64,000 nt of DNA from assembly GCA_047602405.1 (NCBI GenBank), contig JASGHJ010000002.1, forward strand, positions 2,976,001 through 3,040,000, read 5' to 3'. Positions 45,984-54,015 of the stretch are shown one piece after another. Position 1 is the first letter of the stretch. Each line of letters starts with the position of its first letter. Position numbers and translations under genes: made by a program. The DNA comes from Anaeromyxobacteraceae bacterium. GTDB taxonomy: Bacteria > Myxococcota > Myxococcia > Myxococcales > Anaeromyxobacteraceae. Below the pieces are notes generated by a model. That model worked only from the letters and a program-made list of their open reading frames with translations. It ran no database searches and was not told the origin of the DNA.

Positions 45984-46085
45984 CGAACACCGTACGGAGC
46001 CGGTCGCCCGCGCGCCTTGCCGGCGGGTGCGAGCCGTCCCCACCCTGTGATCCGGGGCCCGCGCACGCGGGCGGGGGGAGGACGG

Positions 46086-47186
46086 ATGGGGGCGTGGCTC
46101 CACGCGCTCGGGCTCGCGGCCGCGCTGGCGGCACCGCCCGACGCGCCGTTCTGGCGCGAGGCCGTTCCGCAGCCGGCGGCGATGGCGCCGCCCGCGGCGA
46201 CCGCCGGCGGCCTCCCCGAGCTCTCCCGCATCGCCCGGGAGGCGCTGCCCTCCGTGGTCGGCGTCACGACCACCCAGGGCCGCCCGCCCGGCGCCACCGA
46301 CGCGCAGCTCCGCGAGCTCCTCGACCGGCTCCACGACGGGCCGCGCAAGGGGGTCGGCTCGGGCTTCGTCATCCACCCGGACGGCTGGGTCCTCACGAAC
46401 GCGCACGTGGTCGAGGGCGCGGACCGGGTGGAGGTCGACGTCTCCGGCCGCACGCTCGAGGCGCGCGTGGTGGGCCTCGACTCCGAGTCGGACATCGCGC
46501 TCCTCAAGGTCGACCCCGACCGCCCGCTGCCCGCGCTCGTGCTCGCCGACTCCGACCGGCTCGCCATCGCCGACTGGGTGATGGTCATCGGCAGCCCCTT
46601 CGGGCTCGTCCGCTCCGTGACCTTCGGGATCGTGAGCCAGCTCGGGCGCAGCGACGTCTCGCCGGTGGGACGCCCGGGCTCCTACGAGTTCGTGCAGACC
46701 GACGCGTCGATCAACCCGGGCAACTCGGGCGGCCCGGTCCTCAACCTGCGCGGGGAGGTCGTCGCGATCGCGACGGCGGTGAACGCGACCGGCCAGGGCA
46801 TCGGCTTCGCGGTGCCGATCAACATGGCGAAGGCGGTCCTCGGGCAGCTGCGCGCGTCCGGGAAGGTGGTGCGCAGCTGGCTCGGCCTCGCCGTGAAGGC
46901 GCCGGAGCCCGAGGGCGAGGGGCTCGTGGTGACCGAGGTCGACGCCGCGGGCCCCGCCGCGGGCGCGGGGCTCAAGGTCGGCGACGTGATCACCGGCTTC
47001 CAGGGGCGCCCGGTCGCGACGCCGGCGCGGCTGCGCTGGTTCGTGTCGACCGCGGGCGTGGGGCGGGCGATCGAGCTGCGGGTGCGCCGGCCCGGGCAGC
47101 CGGACCGCACCGTGCGGGTCGGGCTCGTCGCGACGCCGTCGGGCGAGGAGGTCCGCGCGCAGGCACGCCAGGCCGCCGGGCCGTGA
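46086..47186 (+). CDS. HtrA/DegP-like trypsin serine protease with PDZ domain
   Basis: GSGF, TNAHVV, SDIALL, QTDASINPGNSGGP. Confidence 0.95.
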   Translation: MGAWLHALGLAAALAAPPDAPFWREAVPQPAAMAPPAATAGGLPELSRIAREALPSVVGVTTTQGRPPGATDAQLRELLDRLHDGPRKGVGSGFVIHPDGWVLTNAHVVEGADRVEVDVSGRTLEARVVGLDSESDIALLKVDPDRPLPALVLADSDRLAIADWVMVIGSPFGLVRSVTFGIVSQLGRSDVSPVGRPGSYEFVQTDASINPGNSGGPVLNLRGEVVAIATAVNATGQGIGFAVPINMAKAVLGQLRASGKVVRSWLGLAVKAPEPEGEGLVVTEVDAAGPAAGAGLKVGDVITGFQGRPVATPARLRWFVSTAGVGRAIELRVRRPGQPDRTVRVGLVATPSGEEVRAQARQAAGP

Positions 47187-47223: not shown

Positions 47224-47259
47224 CCGGGGGCGGCCGGCACGCGGCCGCTAGAGCACCGG
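47224..47259 (-). promoter_or_regulatory. Candidate bacterial SECIS element
   Basis: After UGA (47262-47260): 11 nt, then GCGGCCG-CGUGC-CGGCCGC stem-loop with GU in the loop; lower CCGG/CCGG pairing possible. Confidence 0.6.
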
Positions 47260-47743
47260 TCAATTCTCGACGACCGTGCTCCGGAGGAATCGGGTACCCA
47301 CTCGCGAGGCAGTCCGCCTCCGAGCGGAGCGTGTTCGGGGCGTAGTCGCGCGGGACCACCACGTAGTTGAAGAGCCAGAGCGGGCTGTACTTCTCCATGC
47401 CCGGCACCGAGTCGTAGATGTTGTACTGGCCCGGGACGCGCTCCGGCTCGCGCACCGGCTTCCCGTCCGGGCCGAGCTCCACCGCGTACACCACCTGGTA
47501 CTCCATCGCGACCTTGAGCCGCGCGGGATCGACGTCGAGCTCGCCCTGCTCGATCGCGTAGACGATCTTCCCCTCGAACCAGACCCGCTCGACCTCGAGC
47601 CGGTACGGGTTCGAGTAGGTCAGGGTCGAGGTGCCGTCCGCGCGGTAGGCCCCGGCCCGGGGCGCGGGGCCGGGCGTGCCGCCGTCGATCGACCAGACGC
47701 CCTCCTCCTCGCCCGGGGTGACGCCGCCATCGTGCTCGCTCAT
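47248..47743 (-). CDS. Hypothetical protein, candidate selenoprotein (164 aa after correcting +1 frameshift at 47288-47289)
   Basis: ...YDSVPGMEKYSPLWLFNYVVVP...SEADCLASGYPILRSTVVEN-TGA-PVL-TAG. Confidence 0.7.
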
Positions 47744-47799: not shown

Positions 47800-49077
47800 T
47801 CAGGGGACGAAGTAGAACGACCGGCGGCGGACGAGCGCGGTCGTGACGAAGGCCTCCCCGTCGACGCCGTCGATGCGGGCCTCCACGAACGCGCTCGCCG
47901 CGCCGATGCCGGCCCAGGTCGTGTCGAGGTCGAGGAAGCGGACCTCCGCCGACTCGGTGATGGTGGCGTAGCCCGCGGGCGGCGCCTCGAAGCCGGCGAA
48001 CCAGGTGGTCGTCCCGGGCGACGCGCTCCACTCGAGCCGGAGCGGCCCCGCGGCGCTCACCGTCTCGAACTCGGCGGGCTTCTCGACGGAGAACTCGGCC
48101 GGCATCGTGAAGACCCGCCCGCGGGAGGTGTTCGCGGCGGTGACCGAGACGAGCACCTGCCCGCCGGGGCGGACGAGCGCGGTGTCGGCCTCCGACAGGC
48201 GGAAGGCGCCCCAGCCGGCGTCCCAGGGGATGCGCCGCCCGTTCACGCTCACGACGGCGTCGGGGTACGAGGAGACCGCGAGGCTCGTGACCCGCAGCTC
48301 CACCTGGAGCCGCGTGCCGTCGAGCGCGACGGTCCCGTCGTAGCCGAAGCCGGGGGGGCCGTCGGAGGGGAGCTCGCCGGAGAGGCCGCAGACCGGATCG
48401 AGGAGGAACGTGAGCCAGCCCGCGAGGCAGACGAAGGCGTCGTAGACCGGGCCGCCCTCGGTGAGCGAGAGCCGCACGCGCGTGTCGAGCGGGACGACCG
48501 CGGCGTCGTCGGCGCCCGCCGCCTTCACGAGGTTGAGCCCGGGCGAGAGGCCGGTCCCGGCCGGCTGCGCGCGGTCCACGTAGACGAGCGCGAAGGTCGA
48601 GGCCGGGTCGCCGAGCAGCGAGGACCCGATGATCCGGTCCACCGGCTTCCCGTACCGCGGGATGGGCGCGAGGCGCCGGTCGCCGTCGAGGTCCTGGTAG
48701 GCGAGCAGCACGCCGAACGCGCCGCGCCCGAGGAGCCCCTCGCCGAGCGGCGCGAGGGCGGCCGCGGGCGGCGGGCCGTAGAGCGGGAAGCGGAAGTCGA
48801 CCGGGAAGGTGCCCTCGGCCTCGACCTCCTCGGTGACGATCGCCGGGGGCGCGTCCGCCGCGGACGGATCCGCCGCGGCGAGCCACTGCGGGTACCAGGC
48901 GACCGCGAGGCGCACGGGCCCCTTCACGTCCACGCCGGGCGCCGGGACCATGCTGCCCGAGAGCGCGCCGAGCGGGACGCCGCGGTAGCTCGCGTCGACC
49001 AGCCGGTCGCCGCAGGCCGGGAGGAGGACGGCGAGCGCGAGGGCCAGGGTGAGGGGGTGGGACGCGCGGTTCTTCAT
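47800..49077 (-). CDS. Hypothetical lipoprotein, last gene of the ECF/caspase operon
   Basis: Lipobox LLPAC; YQDLDGD Ca-binding-like loop; starts immediately after the caspase stop. Confidence 0.8.
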   Translation of the reverse strand: MKNRASHPLTLALALAVLLPACGDRLVDASYRGVPLGALSGSMVPAPGVDVKGPVRLAVAWYPQWLAAADPSAADAPPAIVTEEVEAEGTFPVDFRFPLYGPPPAAALAPLGEGLLGRGAFGVLLAYQDLDGDRRLAPIPRYGKPVDRIIGSSLLGDPASTFALVYVDRAQPAGTGLSPGLNLVKAAGADDAAVVPLDTRVRLSLTEGGPVYDAFVCLAGWLTFLLDPVCGLSGELPSDGPPGFGYDGTVALDGTRLQVELRVTSLAVSSYPDAVVSVNGRRIPWDAGWGAFRLSEADTALVRPGGQVLVSVTAANTSRGRVFTMPAEFSVEKPAEFETVSAAGPLRLEWSASPGTTTWFAGFEAPPAGYATITESAEVRFLDLDTTWAGIGAASAFVEARIDGVDGEAFVTTALVRRRSFYFVP

Positions 49078-50667
49078 CTAGAGCCTCCACCCCAGCCCCG
49101 CGCGGACGCCGCGCGTCGCGGCGGCGCCGGCGTCGCGCTCGGTCGGCAGCGCCGTCCACATGAGCTCCCCCATGAACCACCCGAAGAGCGCTCCGGGCAG
49201 CGGGACCTCGAGGCCGGCGGTGAGCCCGGCGGAGAGTCCGAGCGCCCGCCGCAGCGGGAGCGGCCCCACGCCGAAGGTGTCCCGGATTTCCCGCTCCCGG
49301 GCCCGCACCGGCCGCTGCTCGACGCCGGCGACCTCGACCGCGAGCCCGAGGTGCGGCACGACCGGCCACTCGAGCCACCGGTACCCGGCCGCGAGGCCCA
49401 GGCCGAGCCGGCGCTCGTCGACCGTGAGCTCCACGCCCGGGTAGCTCGCCGCGCCGGCGCCGATCGTCGCGAGCGCCCACCACGGCCCCGCCGTGTGCCG
49501 GTAGCCGGCCGCGCCGGCCCACCGGGAGCCCGTGCCTGCGAGCGGCGAGGTCTGCACCGCCCCGAGCACGACGACCGCCGCGTTCCGCACCGAGAGGTAC
49601 CCGCCCTTCACGGCGACCTCCTGGTAGCGGCGCCAGGCGAGCTCCTGGTCGCGGACCTCGCGCTCGCCGCCGAAGGGCAGCTCGAGCTCGAGGAGCCCGG
49701 TGCTCGCGCCCGCGCGCTTGCGCACGAGGTACCGACCGGGCGGGACCGCGAGGCGGAGCGGCTTCCCGGCCGGCTTCTCGACCTCGGCGACGACGTCGGG
49801 CCTGGGCTGGCTCGCGACGACGTAGCGGCCCGAGAGCGCGGCCGGGAAGACGAGGGCGCTGTGCGCCTGGACGGGCTCGGTGAGGACGAGCTCGCCGCTC
49901 CCGGCGAGGTCGAACGCGAACGCCGGGTGCTGCCCGGCGCCGGCCGCGCCCGCGACCGTGCGCCGGTAGGCGTAGGCGTAGACCTCCGAGAGCGAGACCC
50001 GGCCGTCGCCCTCGACGTCGGCGTCGCCGCGCAGGCCGGTCAGGAGGTGGTGGGTGAAGAGCGAGCCCTTGAGCGAGTCCCACTCCTCGCTCGACTCGCC
50101 CGGCCCCGACGACGAGATGAAGACCTCGCCGCGGACCGGCAGCTGCTCGAGCGAGACCGCGAACTCCGGCCCCGGCCGCGCGCCCTTCCGCCGCGCGAGC
50201 GCGCCGGACTCGCACGCGTCCACGACGAGCACGGTGACGCGGGCCCCGGCGTCGCGCGCCGCCTCGCGGAGGTCGGCGAGGGCGAGCCGGCTGCCGCCCA
50301 GCCGGAGCACGCCGTCCTTCGCGTGCGACGAGACGTAGACGAACAGCACGGCGTCGTCGCCCGCCGCGCGGAGCTCCGAGATGCGGCCGGCGAGCTCGCT
50401 CAGGCGCTTTCGCACCTCCCCCGCCTCCCGGTCGAGCACCACGAGCGCCCGGTCCGGCCGGACGCCGCCGAGCTCGACCAGCACCTGCCGGACCCGCTGC
50501 GCGTCGTCGTCGGCGTAGGAGAGGACCGGGTCGTCGGGCTCGCCCACGTTCGCGCCGACCGCGAGCAGGAGCCGGTGCGTCGCCGCGCGGGCCGGGGCCG
50601 CCGCCCCCACGCCGGCGGCGACGAGGAGCGCGGCGAGGAGCGCGCGCGACGGGGAGGAGGAGCTCAC
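49078..50667 (-). CDS. Exported caspase-family (peptidase C14) protein with C-terminal beta-barrel-like domain
   Basis: Signal peptide; LSYADDDA, FVYVSSHA (His), VVDACESG (Cys), SLFTHHLLTGLRGDAD..GDGRVSL; ends RAGLGWRL. Confidence 0.88.
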   Translation of the reverse strand: MSSSSPSRALLAALLVAAGVGAAAPARAATHRLLLAVGANVGEPDDPVLSYADDDAQRVRQVLVELGGVRPDRALVVLDREAGEVRKRLSELAGRISELRAAGDDAVLFVYVSSHAKDGVLRLGGSRLALADLREAARDAGARVTVLVVDACESGALARRKGARPGPEFAVSLEQLPVRGEVFISSSGPGESSEEWDSLKGSLFTHHLLTGLRGDADVEGDGRVSLSEVYAYAYRRTVAGAAGAGQHPAFAFDLAGSGELVLTEPVQAHSALVFPAALSGRYVVASQPRPDVVAEVEKPAGKPLRLAVPPGRYLVRKRAGASTGLLELELPFGGEREVRDQELAWRRYQEVAVKGGYLSVRNAAVVVLGAVQTSPLAGTGSRWAGAAGYRHTAGPWWALATIGAGAASYPGVELTVDERRLGLGLAAGYRWLEWPVVPHLGLAVEVAGVEQRPVRAREREIRDTFGVGPLPLRRALGLSAGLTAGLEVPLPGALFGWFMGELMWTALPTERDAGAAATRGVRAGLGWRL

Positions 50668-51440
50668 GGGGCCTTCCTCAGGCGCAAGGTGGAGACGGTG
50701 CAGCCGTCGCAGGCGAGCACGGGCTCGGGCCGGCGCGCCTGGGCGCGGAGGGCCTCGAGGAGCGGCGCCGCCTCGAAGGGCCTCGTCGAGAAGACCGCGA
50801 AGACGAACTCCGGGCCGGGCGCGTCGTCGAGCACGACGGAGCCGGGCAGGAACTCGCGCTGGCCCGCCTTCTGCGGGGCGGCCGCCCCGGCGCCGTAGGG
50901 GTGGAGCACCGCGGCGGCGCCGCGGCCGTCGAGCTCGAGCACGAGGAGGAAGCCGTCCTGCGGCGCCTCGTAGGAGAAGCGCAGCGCGTCGCCCGCCCGG
51001 ACGACCGCGTCGTTCGCGGCGAGCTCCGGCGCGCCCTGCCCGCCGCGCGCGACCGCGACGCGGAAGCCGTCGCCCTTGAGCGTGACCCCGGGGGACGTGG
51101 CCGGGCCGCCGAGGAGCCGCGGCGCGATCAGGGCGACGAGCGCGAGCGGGAGGGCGAGCCCGAGCGCGGGCACGAGGCGGCGGAGGAGCGGAGGCCGCGC
51201 CGGGGCGGCCGCGGCGCTCGCCTCGCGGCGCTCGAGCTGGCGCAGGAACCGGTCCGCGGGCCGGGCCCGGCGGAAGGCGTCGGCCTCGGCGCGGAGCGCC
51301 TGGAGCTGGGCCGCGCAGGCCTCGCAGCCGGCGGCGTGGGCCTCGACGCCGGGCGGCGCGGCCTCGCCGGCCGAGAGGGCCTCGAGGACGGCGGCCGGCG
51401 GACACGCCGGGCCGCGGACGGAGGGAGGGATCGGGCTCAT
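50664..51440 (-). CDS. Zinc-binding anti-sigma factor with TM helix and DUF4384-like periplasmic domain
   Basis: HAAGCEAC (HxxxCxxC); TM; TLKG; GDALRFSY, LPGSVVLDDAPGPE. Confidence 0.85.
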   Translation of the reverse strand: MSPIPPSVRGPACPPAAVLEALSAGEAAPPGVEAHAAGCEACAAQLQALRAEADAFRRARPADRFLRQLERREASAAAAPARPPLLRRLVPALGLALPLALVALIAPRLLGGPATSPGVTLKGDGFRVAVARGGQGAPELAANDAVVRAGDALRFSYEAPQDGFLLVLELDGRGAAAVLHPYGAGAAAPQKAGQREFLPGSVVLDDAPGPEFVFAVFSTRPFEAAPLLEALRAQARRPEPVLACDGCTVSTLRLRKAP

Positions 51441-51943
51441 GGCGTCATGCGCTCCATACCCTGCGACCACAGCTCCCGCACCCGCTCCTCGAAGCGCTGC
51501 AGCTTCTTGCCGATGGTCTTGCGCGAGTAGCCGGTGCGCTCGGCCACCTCCTCCTGCGTGTAGCCGTCGAGGTGGTGGAGCACGCCGATCTCCCGGGTGA
51601 CGGGGTCGAGGTCGCGCAGGGCGGCGCCCACGAGCGCGCGGCGGTCGGCGTCGGCGGGGTCGCCGGCGCCGCGCCGCTCGGCGGCCTCGAGGTCGTCCTC
51701 GCCGGCGACGGGCTCCTTGCCCCGGCGCTGGAGGAGGTCGAAGGAGACGTTCCGGGCGATGGTGTAGAGCCAGGAGAGCGTGGAGCCGTCGGTGGACGGG
51801 CTCGCGCCGAGCCGCTTGACCCTGAGGAAGGTCTCCTGCAGCGCGTCCTCGGCGTCGGCGGCGTTGCGCAGGAGCGCGAGGCACCGCCGGTGCACGAGGT
51901 AGCCGTACTGCTGGTAGAGCTGGGCGAACTTGTCGTCGTCCAT
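51437..51943 (-). CDS. ECF sigma factor
   Basis: DAEDALQETFL, SWLYTIARN, LDGYTQEEVAERTGYSRKTI; ATGA overlap with anti-sigma. Confidence 0.93.
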   Translation of the reverse strand: MDDDKFAQLYQQYGYLVHRRCLALLRNAADAEDALQETFLRVKRLGASPSTDGSTLSWLYTIARNVSFDLLQRRGKEPVAGEDDLEAAERRGAGDPADADRRALVGAALRDLDPVTREIGVLHHLDGYTQEEVAERTGYSRKTIGKKLQRFEERVRELWSQGMERMTP

Positions 51944-51971
51944 GTCCGCACGGTGGCTCCTCCGATCGTCT

Positions 51972-52000
51972 GGACCGGAGGACGGCCTCTTCCTGGGAAC
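51972..52000 (-). promoter_or_regulatory. Putative ECF autoregulatory promoter GTTCCCA-N16-CGGTCC
   Basis: Upstream of the sigma gene RBS (GGAGGA); same motif on + strand at 52067. Confidence 0.7.
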
Positions 52001-52066
52001 CCCTTTCCAGGAGCGCCCCACCTGTAGCGTTCAATCGCTCCGGTCGGGTAGAGCCCGAACAGGCCT

Positions 52067-52095
52067 GTTCCCACGATTTCGAGCCGGCCCGGTCT
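52067..52095 (+). promoter_or_regulatory. Putative ECF target promoter GTTCCCA-N16-CGGTCT
   Basis: Ends 7 nt before ATG 52103; matches 51972-52000. Confidence 0.7.
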
Positions 52096-52102
52096 GCCGG
52101 GC

Positions 52103-53867
52103 ATGACCCACCACACCACCCACCGGCTGCTCCCGCTGCTCTCGCTGGGCCTCGCGCTCGCCGCCTGCGGCGGCCGTGACCCGGCCCCCACCCCCCTCCC
52201 GGTCGAGCCCGTCGAGCGCGTCGTCGACGTGCAGATCGACCCCTCCGAGGTCACCCTCGAGGTGGGCGAGACCGTCACGCTCGCGGCGCTCGTCACCACG
52301 GAGAGCGTCGAGCCTGCCCTCGGCGCCCGCGCGCTCGCGGCGGCGAACGATCCCGAGGTGACCTGGGCCTCCTTCTCCTCCCACGTCGCCGCCGTCGCCG
52401 CCGACGGGACCGTCACCGCGGTCGCGCCGGGCTCGTCGCTCGTGACCGCGACCGCGGGTGGCATCACGGCGCAGGCCACCGTGACCGTGCGCGACCCGGT
52501 GGTCGCTCCGCCGCCCATCGCCAGCGTCGAGGTCTTCCCGGCGACCTTCTGGCTCGAGGTGGGCCAGACGCGCGCGCTCCAGGCGGTCGCCTTCGACGCC
52601 AGCGGGGGCGTGGTCTCCGGCGCCGAGCTCACCTGGTCGTCCCTCGACCCCTACGTCGCGATCGTGGGCGAGGACGGCGTCGTCACCGCGCTCTCCGCCG
52701 GCCAGGCGACCCTGGAGGTCTCCGCGGGCGACGTGACCGCGACCGCGGAGGTGACCGTCACGAACGTCACGGACCCGGGCCCCGGCACGGTCGCCCGCGT
52801 GGAGCTCTCCGAGACCGTGCTCGCGCTCGCCGAGGGCGACGTGCGGGTCCTCACCGCGACCCCGGTCGACGCCGTGGGCGCGCCCGTGACCGGCCTCGCC
52901 GTCCGCTGGCAGACCTCCGACGAGGGCACCGTGTACGTCACCCCCGGCGGCGAGGTGCGCGCCGTCCGCGCCGGCGCGGCCGCCGTGACCGCGACCGTGC
53001 ACGGCAAGGTCGCGACCGCGAACGTCACCGTGACGCTGGAGCTCGACTCGGACCTCTTCTTCGAGGCGTTCTCGGCGGCGGCGGGCAAGTACGAGTGGCG
53101 GTCCCGCGACGTGCGCGACGCCGCGGCGTCCGACGTCGTCGTCATGGCCGGCGGCGCCGTCGAGGGGCGGCCCGTACCCTCCCCGGCCGGCGACCGGATC
53201 GCGTTCACCATGAACTCCGGCCTCAACCCGGCGCACCAGCTCCGCGTGGTCGACCTCCGCCGCCAGACGATTCTGGGTCCTCGACCTCCCTGGCGACGTC
53301 CTCGACGCCGCGTGGTCCTGGGACGGCGCGCACCTCGCGTTCGCGCTCCGGACGCCGGGGACCGGGCTCGACGTCTGGACCGTCCGCGCGGACGGCTCGG
53401 ACGCCCGGAACCTGACCGCCTCGCTCGGCGCGGCCTCGAACGAGACCCAGCCGACCTGGGCGCCCGCGGCGATGGGCAAGCTCGCCTTCACCCGCACGCT
53501 CGACGGCGCCTCCAGCCTCTGGACCGTCGACGCCGACGGCGCGAACCCCACCCGGCTCACGAACGGCCTCGCCGACGCCGATCCGGCCTGGTCGCCCGAC
53601 GGCAGCTCGATCGCCTTCCAGCGCTCCTCGATCGCGATCTTCGGCGACCTGTTCTTCGTGTCGCCCACCGGCGCCATCCAGCGCAGCCTGGTCGGCCGCA
53701 TCGGCATCCAGGGCCGCCCGGCGTGGTCGCCCGACGGCGCGATGGTCGCGTTCGTCGACGACCACGACCTCGCGACGGTCCGCAAGGACGGTTCGCTCGT
53801 CGCGAGGCGCACCTTCGACGCCGAGGCCACCGCGGAGACGCGGCCGGGGTGGCTGAAGAAGCGGTAG
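52103..53867 (+). CDS. Lipoprotein with three Ig-like (Big_2) repeats and a TolB/PD40 propeller; +1 frameshift at 53271-53272
   Basis: LALAAC; VTWAS..VAAV..DGTVTAV x3; corrected frame QTIWVLDLPGDVLDAAWSWDG...PAWSPDG joins the 53472-53867 ORF. Confidence 0.85.
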
Positions 53868-53888
53868 GCAGCCATTCCTGGGAGTGAA

Positions 53889-53927
53889 CCCTGGAGGGCC
53901 ACCGCGTGGCTGGCCCTCCAGGGGCGT
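53889..53927. terminator. Inverted repeat after the Ig/TolB gene
   Basis: CCCTGGAGGGCCA-ccgcgtggc-TGGCCCTCCAGGG followed by GCGTTTC. Confidence 0.65.
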
Positions 53928-54015
53928 TTCGAGGGTCGCAGGACGATCTGCCGCGCATCACGGCCCGCGGGGCTGCGCCTCTCATGTACGGGCGGAGAGA
54001 ACGGAGGAGGTCCCG

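Follow-up and report, generated by a model that had tools for sequence, protein, structure and literature searches.

The 64-kb window analysed here (the whole stretch of DNA, 64,000 nucleotides) contains on its minus strand an open reading frame that begins with an ATG at 47743, translates as M...SGYP down to 47291 and continues to 46682, antisense to a convergent trypsin/PDZ (HtrA-like) protease gene on the plus strand (46017..47186; Pfam/NCBIfam scan; context only). This agrees with a first-pass annotation, which had taken the frame as real protein up to SGYP and as spurious beyond it. The locus therefore raises the question of where the encoded protein ends, and whether a TGA that comes into frame once a single base is removed is a stop codon or a codon for selenocysteine (Sec). 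The favoured reading, with a probability of roughly 0.8, is that the gene encodes a 164-residue selenoprotein ending in Asn-Sec-Pro-Val-Leu and made in a SelB-dependent manner, that the shifted frame probably reflects a mistake in the assembly, and that the product is likely a redox enzyme acting through its terminal selenol.

Reading frame of the gene and quality of the assembly

All parts of the gene lie on the minus strand. Residues 1-151 (47291..47743) comprise an acidic N-terminal arm followed by a single DUF7482-like repeat, with neither a signal peptide nor an encapsulin tag, and the window copy is an untagged, presumably cytoplasmic form. The frame is then shifted by an extra base within 47286..47290, at a would-be GATC, the position of which is ambiguous (a T at 47289/47288 or a C at 47287/47286). 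After a one-base frame shift the DNA reads (F/I)LRSTVVEN-TGA-CCG-GTG-CTC-TAG. This consists of the last strand ..LRSTVVEN (47263..47289), which agrees with the ends of 119 of 120 homologs, the UGA at residue 161 as the predicted Sec codon (47260..47262), and Pro-Val-Leu with the true stop TAG (47248..47259, with the TAG at 47250-47248). A candidate bSECIS upper stem-loop is found at 47230..47248, almost wholly past the stop codon.

Directly upstream and co-oriented lies a lipoprotein-like ORF (47800..49077) without Pfam or NCBIfam match, which is not among the recurring neighbours of the relatives and serves as context only. Further upstream, the minus strand of the window holds a cluster at 49078-54000 with an ECF sigma factor (51437-52021), an anti-sigma-like DUF4384 protein, a caspase-like protein and an Ig-repeat lipoprotein. 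The minus-strand ORFs 49078-51405 and 52103-53887 also look frameshifted.

The earlier proposal that removal of one base at about 47288-47289 restores the LRSTVVEN-UGA-PVL frame is confirmed by P0003, a protein 97% identical to the window protein that is in frame through the site (...SGYPILRSTVVEN). Comparison of the source assembly with a complete genome of the same genus (G007) over 20 stretches showed that 15 of 136 orthologs are frame-changed, and that 77 genes alignable at ≥78% DNA identity contain 11 isolated 1-nt gaps, nine of them insertions, a frameshift rate that rests on this one genome pair. In the alignment, read by eye, eight of the 11 gaps are located at GATC, where most consist of an A or T written twice, and the remaining three fall at GCTCTTC-like sites; the window site shows the same one-letter doubling at GATC. 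This pattern resembles methylation-linked errors of long-read sequencing. The affected genes include PheS-like and DnaK-like ones, which we take to be housekeeping genes. On these comparisons, an assembly error is the likely source of the frameshift and, with good confidence, the living cell has an intact gene. More generally, single-base indels occur in the coding DNA of the source assembly at a rate of about one per 10 kb, for the most part as letter doublings at GATC with some at GCTCTTC-like sites, and other calls of frameshifts or split genes in this genome deserve caution, such as an EF-Tu-like match with an internal TAA and split formate dehydrogenase matches.

The UGA codon and the downstream hairpin

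The homolog search yielded 1,022 proteins at E ≤ 0.001. The best 120 of these all terminate at the same Asn (119 as 'EN' and one as 'TN'), and public gene calls end every one of the 120 at the Asn before the TGA, so that gene callers do miss the putative Sec tail, as anticipated. At the DNA level, the 80 top-ranking loci were examined from each of two sets, 105 loci in genomes and 339 in metagenomes; four of these 160 stop at a contig edge and 156 are informative, with downstream DNA. The codon after the Asn is TGA in all 156 informative loci, and the three residues past it are PVL (114), PVI (27), PVV (9), PVF (5) or PLL (1). The second stop varies between TGA (66), TAG (59) and TAA (31). All four codons are used for both Pro and Val in the tail, and this synonymous variation indicates that the tail is conserved as protein, while the occurrence of TGA as an ordinary second stop in 66 of the 156 loci implies that these genomes do not reassign TGA. 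The in-frame UGA is thus conserved in 156/156 loci together with coding sequence of the form P-V-[LIVF] beyond it, apart from the single PLL, and the prediction that relatives would keep TGA, Pro-Val and the hairpin holds. One Chloroflexota genome (G151) carries two copies of the gene (L008 and L046), both with TGA-PVL and the hairpin.

The hairpin in the window has a perfect 7-bp stem (GCGGCCG at 47248-47242 and CGGCCGC at 47236-47230, minus strand) around the loop CGTGC (47241-47237), exactly as first described. The first base of the stem is also the final base of the TAG, 11 nt past the UGA, which places the element mostly beyond the true stop, again as proposed, and the loop lies 18 nt past the UGA. 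The bSECIS consensus model, as given in PMC13188914, has a loop of 3-9 nt, a stem of 4-16 bp, a G in the first two loop positions, a distance of 16-37 nt from the UGA and an MFE ≤ -7.5; the window hairpin, with its 5-nt CGUGC loop, 7 bp, 18 nt and predicted folding energy of -13.2 kcal/mol, lies within these ranges. The three formate dehydrogenase UGAs of the source genome show the same geometry, with stems of 6-7 bp and GGUCU or AGU loops 18-19 nt downstream, and of the 89,127 TGA triplets in that genome only 900 (1.0%) are followed at such a spacing by a GU-loop hairpin of ≥6 bp. A search of Rfam gave 0 matches at E ≤ 1.

The spacing and GU loop that had been noted in the window recur among the relatives. 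Of 132 distinct downstream sequences, 119 contain a stem of ≥6 bp capped by a G(G/U) loop, compared to 5% of shuffles, and in 125 of the 132 the distance from UGA to loop is 17-20 nt. The loops fall into the classes GGUC (56 sequences) and CGUG(C/A/U) (57 sequences). The loop is closed by C-G in 130 of the 132 distinct relatives and by G-C in the window, where the stem seems to lack one base pair relative to the family consensus. Covariation was assessed on 75 distinct hairpins with a C-G-closed loop of both types, plus the hairpin of the window, whose row is misaligned in the alignment (A5). Two-sided changes occur at six of the seven pairs in each loop class. The covariation amounts to 0.62 and 0.37 for the two classes, against 0.17 and 0.14 when shuffled and ≤0.11 when slid, and 0 of 500 shuffles attain the score, although these figures are not probabilities, since the sets are loop-selected and their members related.

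The source genome contains selA, selB and selD above the cut-off as well as tRNA-Sec, as required for the first-pass interpretation, and its selD itself contains a TGA. Among 50 carrier genomes tested, selA was detected in 47; of the three misses, one (G176) has selB and tRNA-Sec, and in two carrier MAGs (G152 and G196) no selA, selB or tRNA-Sec was found over the cut-off. Since the selA background is high (152/201 Chloroflexota and 82/121 Actinomycetota, a few unpublished genomes being counted in each), the co-occurrence with the gene adds only little.

Taken together, the conserved UGA, the conserved tail, the covarying hairpin, the Cys in distant relatives described below and the complete Sec machinery make insertion of Sec at the UGA highly probable, and they support the original suggestion of a Sec-containing member of an uncharacterised family. 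Every feature of bacterial selenoproteins that can be tested computationally, namely UGA, Cys homologs, bSECIS and sel genes, is present. In the proposed mechanism, a SelB-GTP-Sec-tRNA complex would bind immediately beyond the stop, at the GU-loop hairpin, and decode the UGA as Sec, and the ribosome would stop three codons after the UGA. Failed insertion of Sec would give a product that is only four residues shorter. Because the stop lies four codons past the UGA, the SECIS would be free of coding constraints.

Several other explanations for the locus have to be weighed. If the TGA were a true stop and the hairpin a terminator or another 3' RNA element, the public gene calls, which end at the TGA in 120 of 120 listed homologs, would be correct, and the location of the hairpin between convergent genes in the window would be in keeping. 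This is very unlikely, as the first stop is invariably TGA and the second is not, the P-V-hydrophobic tail is conserved as protein, and the Cys of relatives aligns to the TGA. In addition, a U-rich tail follows only 1 of the 132 hairpins, a terminator scan found no terminator-like site at the window locus, and the spacing from the UGA is conserved, so that the hairpin is unlikely to be the mere terminator that the first-pass annotation had considered. A conserved tail reveals read-through alone and not the inserted residue, and two of the 50 carrier MAGs are without detectable Sec genes; readthrough of the UGA as Trp or Cys, or by leaky termination, nevertheless has hardly any probability, as TGA is not reassigned in these genomes and the hairpin agrees with both the bSECIS model and the formate dehydrogenase elements of the genome itself. 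It is also improbable, if less so, that the family consists of selenoproteins and the window copy is a real pseudogene with a true frameshift. Searches of 36 same-genus and 90 same-family genomes did not find the gene, and no close copy turned up in 300 same-phylum genomes, which suggests sporadic acquisition and makes the decay of a recently gained gene possible; the loop-closing pair of the window hairpin is atypical, and read cover is essentially nil at 47248-47351, including the frameshift site, in four of the 13 listed DNA sequencing runs with a small share of the source organism, no RNA run being listed. However, a like one-letter doubling at GATC recurs in the housekeeping-type genes of the same assembly, and the remainder of the gene matches an intact protein at 97% identity and has a GC3 of 0.98.

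Cysteine relatives, predicted fold and possible function

An exhaustive search for relatives gave 235 representatives, of which the best 150 were examined. The distant relatives reached, among the matches listed, are exported, tandem-repeat proteins, and at least 43 of the 65 longer relatives scanned exceed the cut-off of Pfam DUF7482 (PF24298). The distant repeats with an (N/D)-x-P tail have Cys at x in 84 of 103 cases, and the N-C-P Cys of the DUF7482 relatives aligns to the UGA, in accordance with the first-pass annotation, which had mentioned proteins ending in N-C-P-V. The Cys is replaced in the other 19, so it is not strictly essential there. Two proteins (P0244 and P0267) have a single repeat, share the LxYNNP arm with the family and end in NCPVL. 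The window protein and P0003 do not match DUF7482 at its gathering cut-off of 27.5 bits, and the best score among six homologs tested is 16.3 bits; the window family is a distant relative of DUF7482 and not a member by Pfam's rule. No mention of DUF7482 was found in the literature searched, and the present family would provide it with a first functional clue, in that the N-C-P cysteine would be a reactive site. In same-order genomes, lipoproteins of 400-480 aa (L003-L007, L242 and L245) contain a degenerate DUF7482-like repeat with a YSPFW motif and without the N-C-P tail.

The named carrier records are mostly Chloroflexota and Actinomycetota MAGs, and the named cluster members are hypothetical proteins and one peptidoglycan-binding protein. 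A search for longer homologs gave only two proteins and was uninformative. Divergent members of the family have signal peptides, twin-arginine-like leaders (by eye) or a peptidoglycan-binding domain, and one of these (L204) has TGA-PVI-stop in its DNA together with a GU-loop hairpin of 7 bp. Three proteins (P0153, P0177 and P0243) with an N-terminal peptidoglycan-binding domain and the same terminal Asn are probably cell-wall-anchored Sec forms. Encapsulin aside, the loci of the relatives share no universal gene neighbourhood, and the recurring neighbours (cysS-RNA methylase and genes that we take to be SufB-like and sucC-like) look like lineage synteny. In ten loci (L009, L014, L022, L034, L092, L100, L103, L104, L107 and L122), with named records from Actinomycetota, a co-oriented and presumably SufB-like gene directly precedes the family gene.

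The AlphaFold model of P0003 without the tail has a pLDDT of 76 and is mostly beta, with Asn160 at the end of the final strand. Foldseek found no match for this model in the PDB at E ≤ 0.001, a PDB sequence search (query A4) gave 0 matches, and the ESM Atlas contained no usable match for P0003 or P0168. A thioredoxin-fold or glutathione peroxidase-like protein is not indicated, as the family has no CxxU, UxxC or UxxT motif and the mostly-beta model is without PDB match. The invariant Gln106, Trp123 and Asn160 may shape a site for peroxide- or thiol-directed redox catalysis, a tentative assignment with slightly less than even odds. If they lie close in space in the present protein, these Gln, Trp and Asn residues would resemble those around the Sec in glutathione peroxidases. 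A redox role is favoured by the retention of a reactive Cys or Sec across a very divergent family, the Cys forms of which are sometimes fused to cupredoxin (3/65), PQQ-propeller or kelch domains. It is further favoured by the tagged relatives discussed below, since Family 1 encapsulin cargos largely handle peroxide and iron stress.

The main rival to the redox role is the binding of a soft metal (Cu, Hg or similar) by the terminal selenol together with Met116 and Cys145, by which the protein would sequester or ferry the metal and the tagged forms would store it in the shell. The cupredoxin fusions in 3 of the 65 Cys relatives are compatible with this, as are the twin-arginine-like leaders of divergent members, which suggest export in a folded and possibly loaded state, and the frequent service of encapsulins in metal homeostasis (PMC11126975). 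However, the family conserves no His, only one subfamily has Met116 and Cys145, and no metal-resistance gene was identified among the recurring neighbours, so that the metal-binding role is unlikely. A related proposal, already made in the first-pass annotation, paired the Cys of the EADC motif (C145) with the Sec, either as an obligatory selenenyl-sulfide or as a metal pair. Its premise stands for the closest proteins, as C145 is invariant in the best 120 of 1,022. The position is replaced by Val or Ile in TGA-PVI and hairpin members from four genomes (L178, L179, L208 and L204), 18 of the 30 single repeats that end at N and were scored lack C145, and none of the 56 N-C-P relatives scored has Cys at the position, which aligns there with a Val/Ile/Leu helix position. 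Because C145 is replaced in members with UGA and hairpin and is never Cys in the N-C-P relatives, an obligatory pair is improbable, and in the predicted structure a strand of eight residues would separate C145 from the Sec position. At most, C145 may be the resolving Cys of one, cytoplasmic, subfamily of the proposed redox proteins.

Encapsulin-tagged relatives and relation to known systems

A subset of the family bears a (L/F/W)TVGSL peptide at the N-terminus, after which comes a linker rich in Pro and Ala. Two peptides of this kind, LTVGSL and FTVGSL, are known from structural work as Family 1 tags (PMC11126975 and bioRxiv 10.1101/2025.09.13.676036), which are typically C-terminal (the latter source); known Family 1 cargos include ferritin-like proteins, peroxidase and rubrerythrin (PMC11126975). 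The neighbourhood survey found encapsulin genes near 12 loci. After deduplication, an encapsulin lies within the locus in 11 of 146 loci, all 11 of them tagged, compared to 0 of 128 untagged loci. In 79 whole genomes, PF04454 is present in 11 of the 12 tagged genomes, two of which share one protein, compared to 0 of 67 untagged genomes; the tagged genome without PF04454 has a degenerate tag (MTVGQL). All 12 tagged genomes contain selA. The tagged gene and the encapsulin gene are usually arranged head-to-head, in differing flanking contexts. A quick tree requires five changes of the tag, at least two of them forced by strong branches, and places the tagged proteins near the base of the core group, so there may have been one old association with several joint losses instead of independent gains.

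The tagged relatives thus combine a [LF]-x-[VI]-G-S-L peptide on a flexible terminus with co-occurrence of PF04454, as Family 1 cargos do. For the window copy neither a targeting peptide nor an encapsulin gene was found, PF04454 being undetected in the source genome, which is 98% complete. The putative link to encapsulins, which concerns the relatives and not the window copy, is well supported by these sequence patterns. A search of five encapsulin genomes with the LTVGSL pattern gave, besides the family, only internal or non-coding matches (7 of 15 inspected), and was weak in that it missed three of the five family genes. One locus (L221, G334:C288) contains a 3' gene fragment (N-TGA-LVL, with a mismatch in the hairpin) beside a partial encapsulin match and looks like a decaying cassette. 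The layout of Sec and SECIS leaves no room for a C-terminal tag, which would explain the N-terminal tag of these relatives. There is a somewhat better than even chance that this is an uncatalogued selenoprotein family with a PDB-unmatched fold in soil Chloroflexota, Actinomycetota and others, with the tagged branch being a dedicated Family 1 encapsulin cargo, a selenoenzyme inside a nanocompartment whose tag is N-terminal because Sec and SECIS fill the C-terminal end.

Comparison with existing catalogues makes a new selenoprotein family very likely. Among the 119 families in Table 1 of PMC13188914, none is assigned to DUF7482 and none lists N-U-P-V; the supplements of Haft and Tolstoy 2025 and Deng et al. 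2026 could contain the family, although PMC13188914 tabulates the Haft and Tolstoy families. The selenoprotein models of NCBIfam (release 20) match 0 of 61 aligned members at E ≤ 0.1 and 0 of 4 at E ≤ 1. The literature compared also took in deep-Sep (PMC12013277) and BSepDB (PMC13326102), and in the literature searched no work connecting encapsulin cargo with Sec was found. If the favoured reading is correct, gene callers cut four residues, the likely active one among them, from a family of over 1,000 protein clusters (1,022 at E ≤ 0.001, some portion of which would be Sec forms). The family would then extend the selenoproteome beyond known redox folds and connect selenium recoding with encapsulin compartments, and both claims lend themselves to direct tests in E. 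coli, since the encapsulin cassette has only two genes and the SECIS is short and non-coding.

With respect to known systems, the window family resembles the DUF7482 relatives in the common G..YS.LW...N-C-P-V repeat. Those relatives are mostly exported, have two to four tandem repeats and contain Cys, whereas the window family has a single repeat, an N-terminal LxYxNP arm and a predicted Sec. The tagged relatives carry the same [LF]TVGSL peptide as EncB/C/D of M. xanthus (LTVGSL) and as Q. thermotolerans (FTVGSL), with PF04454 adjacent or co-occurring. They differ from Family 1 cargos in the N-terminal position of the tag, the mostly head-to-head genes and the nature of the protein, a putative selenoprotein with a fold unmatched in the PDB. 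The recoding signal is that of the bacterial Sec system, as in the formate dehydrogenase alpha subunit, with an in-frame UGA, an upper stem of 6-7 bp and a small apical loop with G/GU 17-20 nt downstream. Unlike in formate dehydrogenase, the Sec would be fourth from the C-terminus and the SECIS located in the 3' untranslated region instead of the coding sequence. This near-terminal layout is unusual and not unique; other small families, such as SaoC Cys-Cys-COOH and KCU-star, also have Sec near the terminus and the SECIS downstream. Both are listed in Table 1 of PMC13188914, and the catalogued prokaryotic families of that source share with the present one the Cys/Sec pair, the SECIS and the truncated gene calls.
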